From an uncultured Oscillospiraceae bacterium (lineage in GTDB: Bacteria; Bacillota; Clostridia; Oscillospirales; Oscillospiraceae), in the NCBI GenBank assembly GCA_910578505.1, contig CAJTPV010000013.1, forward strand, positions 1,914 through 65,913: a stretch of 64,000 nt of DNA. The letters run 5' to 3'. Position numbers and translations under genes: made by a program. The stretch's first letter is position 1; the number at the start of each line of letters is the position of its first letter. The notes beneath the pieces are model-generated. The model was not told the origin of the DNA, did not search any database, and saw only the letters and a program-made list of their open reading frames with translations. Shown here piece by piece: positions 2,096 through 2,556 of the stretch.

Positions 2096-2195
2096 GCGAA
2101 AGCACCAAACAGGTTACTTTATGAAACACCGCGAAAAGATCCCCCGGAGAGAGTGTGGTTTAGGGCTCTCTCACGGGGGATCTTTCCGCTATGGA
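2096..2195 (+). ncRNA. Candidate cis-antisense sRNA, a type I antitoxin-like RNA, copy 1. It overlaps the 3' UTR/terminator of the convergent peptide mRNA.
   Basis: The predicted TSS is ~7 nt after the -10. There is a 5' GNRA hairpin GGTGC-GAAA-GCACC, and the 16-bp bulged hairpin 2138-2182 acts as a bidirectional terminator. No ORF with an RBS is present. Confidence 0.5.
2138..2182. terminator. Bidirectional hairpin terminator shared by the convergent peptide mRNA and the antisense RNA (copy 1).
   Basis: GATCCCCCGGAGAGAG-loop-CTCTCTCACGGGGGATC. On the minus strand it is followed by TCTTTTC, and on the plus strand by TCTTTCC. Confidence 0.6.
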
Positions 2196-2200
2196 TTGGC

Positions 2201-2296
2201 TCACCGCCTCCGGATAAATCCGTCGAACCACTTGCAGATGCAGTTACTCACCACACCGGCCATGACGGACAGGAGGAAACCAAACAGGTTACCCAT
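2201..2296 (-). CDS. 31-aa hydrophobic peptide with a basic tail, MGNLFGFLLSVMAGVVSNCICKWFDGFIRRR. It is a candidate type I toxin, copy 1.
   Basis: ATG is preceded by GGAGGAAGGGGG (SD). The 5' UTR hairpin CCGTC...GACGG partly occludes the SD. The peptide has a single predicted TM helix plus a KW..RRR tail. It is missed by the ≥60-aa ORF track. Confidence 0.55.
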   Translation of the reverse strand: MGNLFGFLLSVMAGVVSNCICKWFDGFIRRR

Positions 2297-2342
2297 TAGA
2301 AACACCCCCTTCCTCCGTCAGGGATGAAAGACGGCAGGTATA

Positions 2343-2371
2343 GTATACCATAATTCGACAGAATGCGCAAT
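2343..2371 (-). promoter_or_regulatory. Sigma-A type promoter (TTGCGC-17-TGgTATACT) for the peptide mRNA, copy 1.
   Basis: -35 is the reverse complement of 2366-2371; -10 is the reverse complement of 2343-2348, with an upstream TG. Confidence 0.65.
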
Positions 2372-2423
2372 TCTTATTTCGGGTTCGATTCCATAGACAA
2401 ATAAAGACGAAGAAAAAATCTAT

Positions 2424-2452
2424 TGCAAAGTTGTGGGTGGTGTGGTATAGTA
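2424..2452 (+). promoter_or_regulatory. Sigma-A type promoter TTGCAA-17-TGgTATAGT for the antisense RNA, copy 2.
   Basis: Identical to copy 1. Confidence 0.7.
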
Positions 2453-2458
2453 AAGATG

Positions 2459-2556
2459 CGAAAGCACCAAACAGGTTACTTTATGAAACACCGCGAAAAG
2501 ATCCCCCATGAGAGAGGCTTGGGGACACTCTCTCTGGGGGATCTTTCCGCTATGGA
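2459..2556 (+). ncRNA. Candidate cis-antisense antitoxin-like sRNA, copy 2.
   Basis: Same architecture as copy 1. The terminator hairpin at 2500-2543 has a divergent loop and compensatory stem changes. Confidence 0.5.

Follow-up and report, generated by a model that had tools for sequence, protein, structure and literature searches.

How can two neighbouring copies of a small bacterial module be almost identical over most of their length and carry quite different sequence in the interior of one hairpin, while the stem of that hairpin is kept? The question is raised by positions 2052-2746 of a 64,000-nucleotide (nt) stretch of DNA from an uncultured Oscillospiraceae bacterium of the gut (this whole stretch is called the window hereafter), where a unit of ~361 nt is present twice in tandem (2052-2385 and 2414-2746, 361-362 nt from start to start). 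In each unit a predicted toxin mRNA of ~210 nt, on the minus strand, converges with a predicted small RNA (sRNA) of ~100 nt on the plus strand, and their overlap in cis consists of the hairpin only, a common terminator made of an A-tract, a GC-rich hairpin and a T-tract. Judging from these sequence features, it is highly probable that the module is a type I toxin-antitoxin system like par(pAD1), with the hairpin as its shared terminator and with a small peptide that we propose to be a toxin neutralised by base pairing of the sRNA. As an explanation of the whole, we favour with some reserve a tandem duplication of such a module.

The two copies are 96-99% identical outside ~30 nt within the inverted repeat, and nearly all the differences between them lie inside the hairpins at 2138-2182 and 2500-2543. 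Outside the hairpin interior there are one synonymous C/T change in the open reading frame (ORF) of the peptide and a few positions in the promoter and 5' end of the sRNA; a preliminary description of this DNA had recorded the synonymous change, calling the rest of the unit almost identical, but did not mention those near the start of the sRNA.

The probable terminator hairpins of the two copies

The hairpins were delimited by sequence and by folding; their parts are listed below in plus-strand coordinates, with stem lengths in base pairs (bp).

2131-2189, both strands: copy 1 bidirectional terminator hairpin, allele V1 (sequence and fold)
G2138-G2146 with C2174-C2182: copy 1 outer stem, 9 bp (fold)
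A2173: copy 1 bulge, on the 3' arm (fold)
G2147-G2153 with C2166-C2172: copy 1 inner stem, 7 bp (fold)
2154-2165: copy 1 loop of 12 nt, TGTGGTTTAGGG
2146-2175: copy 1 variable interior, in inverted orientation relative to V2 and V3 (allele alignment)
2493-2550, both strands: copy 2 bidirectional terminator hairpin, allele V2 (sequence and fold)
G2500-A2508 with T2535-C2543: copy 2 outer stem, 9 bp (fold)
T2509: copy 2 bulge, on the 5' arm (fold)
G2510-G2516 with C2528-C2534: copy 2 inner stem, 7 bp (fold)
2517-2527: copy 2 loop of 11 nt, GCTTGGGGACA, unrelated in sequence to the copy 1 loop

Both stems extend outward through the A-tract and T-tract to the limits 2131-2189 and 2493-2550. The ninth pair is G2146-C2174 in copy 1 and A2508-T2535 in copy 2, so that sequence and fold bear out what had been described earlier, a change on both strands at this pair and different loops on a preserved stem of 9+7 bp. 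The single-nucleotide bulge is indeed on opposite arms, although the G/C parse first given for it was slightly off, as the fold leaves a single A or U unpaired. The four hairpin RNAs (two copies, two strands) reach -39 to -46 kcal/mol with z scores of -5.7 to -9.6, none of 200 shuffled sequences folding as well, and the minus-strand hairpins were flagged as terminator-like by a terminator scan.

The proposal that the hairpin belongs to a functional RNA element is upheld in the form of a bidirectional terminator shared by a convergent pair of toxin mRNA and antisense sRNA, the anatomy of par. Since intrinsic terminators keep their stems anyway, conservation of the stem is expected of any of them and on its own gives no proof of a role in RNA-RNA specificity.

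Alleles of the hairpin interior in the population

Exact-protein look-ups of the toxin, of the adjacent 34-amino-acid (aa) remnant ORF and of the neighbouring NadE yielded ~20 independent contigs from the species of the window, on which 24 modules can be read; these contigs are metagenome assemblies in which tandem repeats may be collapsed or broken, and many of them end inside a module. Only three hairpin interiors were found among the 24 modules, V1 in eight, V2 in nine and V3 in seven, with no intermediates. Random stem-disrupting substitutions in homologues, which had been named beforehand as the finding that would speak against a functional RNA, occurred in none of the 24. In the 22 modules that can be compared, 21 of the 29 columns of the hairpin core vary, as against 5 of 220 in the rest of the transcribed unit (Fisher p = 1.4e-19, a rough guide given that columns are not independent and the loops not truly alignable), so that the concentration of variation in the hairpin interior, first noticed between the two copies, is very strong.

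In the window V1 occupies copy 1 and V2 copy 2, whereas V3 was met in other strains. Loci with a single copy, in the order nadE, module, remnant, carry V1 (L021), V2 (L031) or V3 (L032, L034 and L037), and tandem loci carry V2+V1 (the window, L033 and L036), V2+V2 (L035) or V3 next to a copy of unknown allele (L038). Moreover, the alleles are not linked to single-nucleotide polymorphisms (SNPs) ~50 nt away in the 5' hairpin of the sRNA, whose haplotypes CC and CT each occur with V1, V2 and V3. The difference between the copies of the window is an allelic polymorphism of the population captured in a duplication, with no copy-specific design.

All the alleles can be written in one framework, provided that V1 is read on the opposite strand:

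All alleles: GATCCCCC-R-GAGAGAG-TGT-[6-8 nt core]-G(C)-CTCTCTC-A-Y-GGGGGATC
V2, toxin strand: GATCCCCC-A-GAGAGAG-TGT-CCCCAA-GC-CTCTCTC-A-T-GGGGGATC
V3, toxin strand: GATCCCCC-G-GAGAGAG-TGT-GTCACT-GC-CTCTCTC-A-C-GGGGGATC
V1, opposite strand: GATCCCCC-G-GAGAGAG-TGT-GGTTTAGG-G-CTCTCTC-A-C-GGGGGATC

With V1 reverse-complemented, 47 of 59 columns are invariant and the stem needs no indel, compared with 38 invariant columns in the direct alignment. In V1 the inner asymmetric marks are flipped, these being the unpaired A and the TGT on the loop's 5' side, whereas the outer mark, an asymmetric pair at 2134/2186 (G·U or A·C), is not; this would place the breakpoints within the perfect inverted repeat of 11-12 nt AAAGATCCCCC(G). 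The alignment thus points, with good probability, to V1 being an inverted version of the common framework. Such an inversion would explain why the bulge sits on the other arm and, because inverting a segment from arm to arm keeps all pairs by construction, it is not countable as compensatory evolution; the moved bulge, which the preliminary description had taken for an independent compensatory change, is accounted for by inversion of the interior. Each allele was found in one orientation only in all its eight, nine or seven modules, so flipping must be rare. Nested inversions were considered too, as the V1 and V2 loop cores read directly agree at 5 of 8 nt, but this likeness is not significant and the idea was dropped.

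Micro-inversions bounded by hairpins are a known recurrent class of mutation in plastid genomes (PMC6824564). In both cases a segment between the arms of an inverted repeat occurs in either orientation among relatives and the stem is kept automatically; in contrast to the plastid inversions, the loop core of the module has been replaced as well, and every sample shows a given allele in the same orientation.

One truly covarying pair is left, the ninth, which is G-C in V1 and V3 and A-U in V2. Of the 23 pairs, 21 are invariant and a two-sided change is seen in one only, a count that 358 of 500 shuffles also reach; in a related clade (L013, L014, L018 and L041) two of 14 pairs show a two-sided change, with one A·C intermediate, and 103 of 500 shuffles do as well, all these counts coming from too few distinct sequences to have power. 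The compensatory change first described therefore stands at the ninth pair, but its statistical weight is small. Both strands of the hairpin are read, and a change on one side of this pair would leave G·U in one RNA but A·C in the other, so that purifying selection on a bidirectional terminator would admit a double change.

Predicted toxin, antisense RNA and relatives in other Firmicutes

The remaining parts of the module are the following.

2201-2296, minus strand: copy 1 toxin ORF of 31 aa, MGNLFGFLLSVMAGVVSNCICKWFDGFIRRR, stop codon at 2203-2201 (ORF call and family motif)
2562-2657, minus strand: copy 2 toxin ORF, peptide identical to that of copy 1, with the one synonymous difference
2279-2316, minus strand: copy 1 toxin initiation region, with Shine-Dalgarno sequence GGAGGAAGGGGG (2316-2305), AUG (2296-2294) and both repeat segments predicted to be bound by the sRNA
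2342-2370, minus strand: copy 1 predicted toxin promoter, TTGCGC (2370-2365), 17-nt spacer, TATACT (2347-2342) and TG extension (read from sequence)
2703-2731, minus strand: copy 2 predicted toxin promoter, TTGCGC (2731-2726) and TATACT (2708-2703) (read from sequence)
2061-2089, plus strand: copy 1 predicted sRNA promoter, TTGCAA, 17-nt spacer, TATAGT and TG extension (promoter scan)
2423-2451, plus strand: copy 2 predicted sRNA promoter (promoter scan)
2096-2193, plus strand: copy 1 predicted sRNA of ~98 nt, its ends taken from promoter and terminator
2104-2130, plus strand: copy 1 sRNA targeting segment, with repeats ACCAAACAGGTTAC (2104-2117) and GAAACACC (2123-2130)
2466-2492, plus strand: copy 2 sRNA targeting segment, same sequence as copy 1

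According to the predicted fold, the sRNA consists of a 5' hairpin GGUGC-GAAA-GCACC (2093-2106), an unpaired targeting segment and the terminator hairpin. The two repeats of the targeting segment, of 14 nt and 8 nt, recur directly at 2279-2292 and 2299-2306, where they flank the AUG of the toxin; being direct repeats in opposite transcripts, they give the sRNA, in its 5' part, complementarity to the toxin mRNA to either side of the AUG, in a predicted duplex of -40 kcal/mol. The 13-mer CCAAACAGGTTAC is found four times in the window (2105, 2280, 2467 and 2641) where 0.03 occurrences are expected. On the mRNA side the Shine-Dalgarno sequence is predicted to be paired in both the minimum-energy and the centroid fold, with different partners in the two. 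The copy 1 toxin promoter was missed by a stricter promoter scan.

Variation was also seen in the sRNA region. The two common SNPs of the population outside the terminator sit in the stem of the 5' GNRA hairpin, and the GAUGC version in copy 2 (2455-2468) has one pair fewer than its counterpart in copy 1 (2093-2106). In L002 (3190-3463) the antitoxin promoter region is swapped for a different promoter of the TTGACA/TATACT type and unrelated GC-rich DNA starts directly after the sRNA 5' end. In L046 (~4690-4744), whose NadE is 97% identical, the toxin has GGC in place of GGT as its second codon, on the margin of the 14-nt repeat; this contig ends ahead of the sRNA side.

The peptide of the window has no match in Pfam, and it matches the NCBIfam model of the Clostridioides difficile type I toxin, NF047374, with 16.1 bits (E 0.011) against a cut-off of 60 bits. 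Of the features of Fst/Ldr-type toxins it has the tryptophan and the basic tail, the proline motif being absent. An exact look-up of a 34-aa version of the toxin with a GTG start returned nothing on record. The toxin mRNA also gives sub-threshold Rfam matches to the Streptococcus sRNA SpF66 (2118-2342 and 2508-2703, minus strand; 24.7 and 20.1 bits, with 42 as the gathering score), which might be another type I toxin mRNA; a search of the literature for the name SpF66 brought up malaria-vaccine papers.

A query with the doubled peptide gave three weak matches, which exposed the motif SVMAG-x5-ICKWFD. A degenerate DNA pattern for MAG-x6-CKWFD was then run on species-representative genomes and viral contigs and returned 11 loci from the former and one viral contig. 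Going by record title, these loci belong to at least seven family-level lineages of Firmicutes (Lachnospiraceae, Ruminococcaceae/Ruminococcus, Butyricicoccus, Peptococcaceae, Selenomonadaceae, Phascolarctobacterium, Erysipelotrichaceae and an unclassified Clostridia metagenome-assembled genome). Their peptides are 25-33 aa long, with invariant M-A-G and C-K-W-F-D. As is typical of type I toxins, the peptide has a hydrophobic helix, a conserved tryptophan and a tail of basic residues. Of the 12 readable loci, 11 show one order behind the ORF, namely a strong hairpin, a repeat of the locus's own start region and a promoter on the opposite strand, with a promoter of the TTGCAA-17-TATAAT type at the equivalent place in 10 of the loci. 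NF047374 touches 11 of 14 family members (best E 0.0015), the NCBIfam Fst model one (E 0.016) and Pfam Ldr four (E 0.008), all of these being weak matches.

The repeats match within each locus: the mean repeat score over 12 loci is 15.0 with the start region of the same locus and 7.1 with foreign ones, the sole exception being two paralogues of one metagenome-assembled genome. This indicates, at the level of sequence, co-evolution of the sRNA with its target, and is the strongest computational support for the predicted pairing of sRNA and start region. Modules occur in clusters of two in L016 and of three in L013. In L016, a metagenome-assembled genome of Selenomonadaceae, two tandem modules on the minus strand lie ~520 nt apart (toxin motifs at 5060 and 4540); the copies are mostly identical by eye, with hairpin interiors CCCCCG-ATGGCAA-CGGGGG and CCCCCGA-TTCGCAG-TCGGGGG. 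Their direct repeats differ too, and in each copy the toxin side matches the sRNA side, the pairing being kept in one of them through two G·U pairs.

In par(pAD1) of Enterococcus faecalis, convergent promoters, a bidirectional terminator, the direct repeats known as DRa and DRb, together with a 5' structure hiding the Shine-Dalgarno sequence are combined; the terminator loops form an initial reversible kissing complex and pairing of DRa/DRb over the initiation region follows (PMC7472228). The module resembles this RNA I/RNA II pair in its convergent promoters (with evidence at the level of consensus), its shared bidirectional terminator with complementary loops, its direct repeats complementary to the toxin start region and the ~210-nt size of its toxin mRNA, as described for par (PMC7472228), and it may resemble it in sequestering the Shine-Dalgarno sequence, which is predicted to be paired. 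It differs in that its predicted sRNA measures ~100 nt as against roughly 40-65 nt, and in that the peptide lacks PXXXG(C) and is recognised neither by Pfam nor by the NCBIfam Fst models. By analogy, the module would work like par, although by signature and hidden Markov model (HMM) its toxin is no member of the Fst family.

The modules CD2517.1-RCd8 and CD2907.1-RCd9 of C. difficile, the family of NF047374, also combine a toxin that is small, hydrophobic and basic at its tail with convergent transcripts that overlap. Their RNAs overlap in cis by 131-283 nt, however, whereas in our module only the terminator overlaps and repression would act through the direct repeats; both by score (16 versus 60 bits) and by RNA layout the module is outside that family. 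It is best described as par-type control joined to a distinct family of small toxins, widespread yet unannotated in gut Firmicutes.

Regarding the surroundings, relatives of intermediate divergence were sought through NadE synteny and none was found. Species with an 86-87% identical NadE (L042-L045 and L047) have nadE followed by a 4HBT thioesterase gene and a gene with a Big_14 domain, with no module at this place; as related species carry the thioesterase gene there, the module is a species-specific insertion at the nadE site. The two-repeat DNA pattern of the module found nothing in viral contigs and one true relative in JGI metagenomes (L008); three more hits in those metagenomes (L006, L007 and L009) were rejected as chance matches to an unrelated repeat. 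A blastn search of phage and plasmid collections with the module gave no match.

Next to the tandem, on the minus strand at 1843-2019, lies an ORF remnant interrupted by stops (...DGKIDGVVLCDQARMLDVAARNAAFVEKAPVEIVAEAVDLIVGFIEMK*), which weakly matches the C-terminal part of the type II toxin PemK/MazF (E 0.0068, below the cut-off). It always adjoins the distal type I module in related contigs, and the two may have arrived together. Module and remnant were also found, with other sequences upstream and downstream and no nadE, in L008 (1-1000, V1 hairpin) and L023 (1-720, V2 hairpin), a context that is either a second insertion site or a rearranged strain. Positions 1-1771 of the plus strand encode the C-terminal part of a very large protein with repeated segments of ~290 aa (repeat family D3); the called gene varies from ~1120 to 1761 aa between strains, which suggests variation of repeat number in a surface protein.

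Predicted loop pairing and the possible origin of the alleles

Do the loops matter for recognition? Predicted loop-loop duplexes lie between -18.3 and -20.5 kcal/mol when the loops are cognate and between -3.0 and -8.1 kcal/mol in the six non-cognate combinations, so that simple duplex energy predicts three mutually orthogonal alleles. On the model of par, the complementary terminator loops of sRNA and toxin mRNA would make a first kissing contact, from which pairing would spread to the single-stranded 5' segment of the sRNA; this segment would pair around the AUG, beside the Shine-Dalgarno sequence, and block translation. The stem would be kept because both RNAs need it for termination and stability, and also automatically by any inversion between perfect outer arms, leaving the loop core free, or even selected, to diverge. 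Since cognate loops are predicted to pair far better than non-cognate ones, the speed with which a given sRNA captures a given mRNA probably depends on the alleles; as the final, translation-blocking pairing is common to all of them, any specificity would be kinetic and partial.

The suggestion that the two antitoxin RNAs are copy-specific can accordingly be kept in a reduced form. The predicted orthogonality of the loops agrees with it, and the tandem copies of L016 differ in a matching way, but the alleles are not tied to copies and the blocking repeats are the same; with an identical sRNA segment over the toxin start in both copies, full copy-specific neutralisation is unlikely, and copy-specificity is plausible for the first contact only. 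That the loop alleles measurably change antitoxin specificity is, from these models, a tentative idea which we would sooner doubt than accept, and in our reading, if they matter, they would alter the rate of first contact and not the final outcome.

Other systems show what such specificity can depend on. For type I modules of C. difficile only cognate antitoxins rescue (PMC5961336), kissing complexes have been reported for RCd9/CD2907.1 (PMC7699646), and no cross-talk is reported for Ibs-Sib (cited in PMC5961336). In the tandem zorO-orzO/zorP-orzP of Escherichia coli O157 three nucleotides, in a single-stranded variable region, decide specificity (PMC3919570). As in zor-orz, the window has highly similar type I modules in tandem; there, however, the genes are divergent and the discriminating nucleotides lie within the repressing segment, whereas here the genes are convergent, the repressing segment is identical and the terminator loop alone differs. 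Antisense-target specificity is set by the kissing-loop sequence in ColE1 RNA I/II and R1 CopA/CopT, where changes of the loop create new groups. Those antisense RNAs control replication, while the proposed target of our module is a toxin.

Several findings weigh against our account as a whole. Promoters, RNA ends and the role of the toxin have all been read from the DNA; the plus-strand terminator ends in no more than a UUU(CC) tail and was not picked up by the terminator scan; the peptide is without the Fst signature and every match to an HMM of a known type I toxin is below its cut-off. The covariation rests on one pair in three alleles. The repeats that would block translation do not differ between the copies, and the tandem with V2 twice (L035), together with the occurrence of every allele in single copy, means that distinct hairpins are not required for two copies to coexist. 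The YUNR U-turn is important for kissing in par, and the corresponding CUAA is found in the toxin loop of V1 and is absent from those of V2 and V3, so that one of three alleles has the motif. Not all par homologues have it either (PMC7472228).

The alternative that we take most seriously, and which is quite possible, is purely mutational and neutral: the interior of the bidirectional terminator would be a mutational hot spot tied to its palindrome, where inversion, template switching and correction of one arm by the other leave the arms complementary without any selection of single pairs. Its loops would drift or be replaced with no effect on specificity, and the identical repeats would give complete cross-neutralisation. 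The switch of the bulge is explained by one inversion within the limits of the perfect inverted repeat, small inversions between hairpin arms being well known from plastids (PMC6824564), and the lack of statistical support for the single two-sided change, the identity of the targeting repeats, the V2+V2 tandem and the single-copy loci with every allele all agree with this. On the other hand, three wholly different loop cores with no intermediates in modules otherwise ~99% identical would call for mutation within 8-12 nt at a rate far higher than in the flanks, the single orientation of each allele shows that flipping is rare and speaks against a hot spot still at work, pairing predictions make the loops orthogonal, and the paralogues of L016 differ at both RNA-RNA contact sites. 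A further reading, which we rate as rather improbable, takes the hairpin interior as a recombining specificity cassette, with a small set of mutually orthogonal kissing-loop alleles that balancing or diversifying selection would maintain in the population and that would set "recognition groups" of the otherwise identical module. Selection and mutation are inseparable with the present data because of the assembly limits and the lack of relatives of intermediate divergence.

A different matter is where the interiors came from. They may be imports, which homologous recombination in the identical flanks would have brought in from diverged modules that belong to other strains or species, leaving mosaics. 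In our estimate this is rather unlikely; it concerns origin, not function, and is compatible with selection as well as with neutrality. Both SNP haplotypes with all three alleles, and V1 or V2 modules in a second genomic context, are what such imports would leave, but no donor with other flanks was found, the species whose NadE is 86-87% identical have no module at the locus, phage and plasmid collections gave no match, and the loop cores occur nowhere else in the 64-kb window. Finally, the sub-threshold HMM matches would also suit a harmless small membrane protein with an ordinary antisense regulator or transcriptional noise, and no toxin-antitoxin system at all. This is very unlikely given a par-like layout with co-evolving repeats conserved in loci from distant Firmicutes, a peptide with hydrophobic helix, conserved tryptophan and basic tail, the contact of most family members with the C. 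difficile toxin model, and copies in tandem or clusters adjoining a MazF-like remnant.

Under our par-like account, the hairpin combines the ordinary stem conservation of a terminator with a mutational curiosity, the inversion of its interior, and possibly with orthogonal specificity cassettes. It gives a caution as well, that in a near-palindromic hairpin a single inversion can mimic compensatory changes and is not independent covariation. If the cassette idea were true, tandem copies would be controlled independently and a resident module would be shielded from silencing by an incoming related antitoxin, like plasmid incompatibility groups. The three alleles form a natural series differing in the terminator loop only, and thus a clean system for the share of the first kissing contact in antitoxin specificity, a contribution otherwise addressed with engineered mutants. 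For the gut Firmicutes, the module adds an unannotated type I toxin-antitoxin family, in which RNA control of the par type would act on a non-Fst MAG...CKWFD toxin invisible to Pfam.

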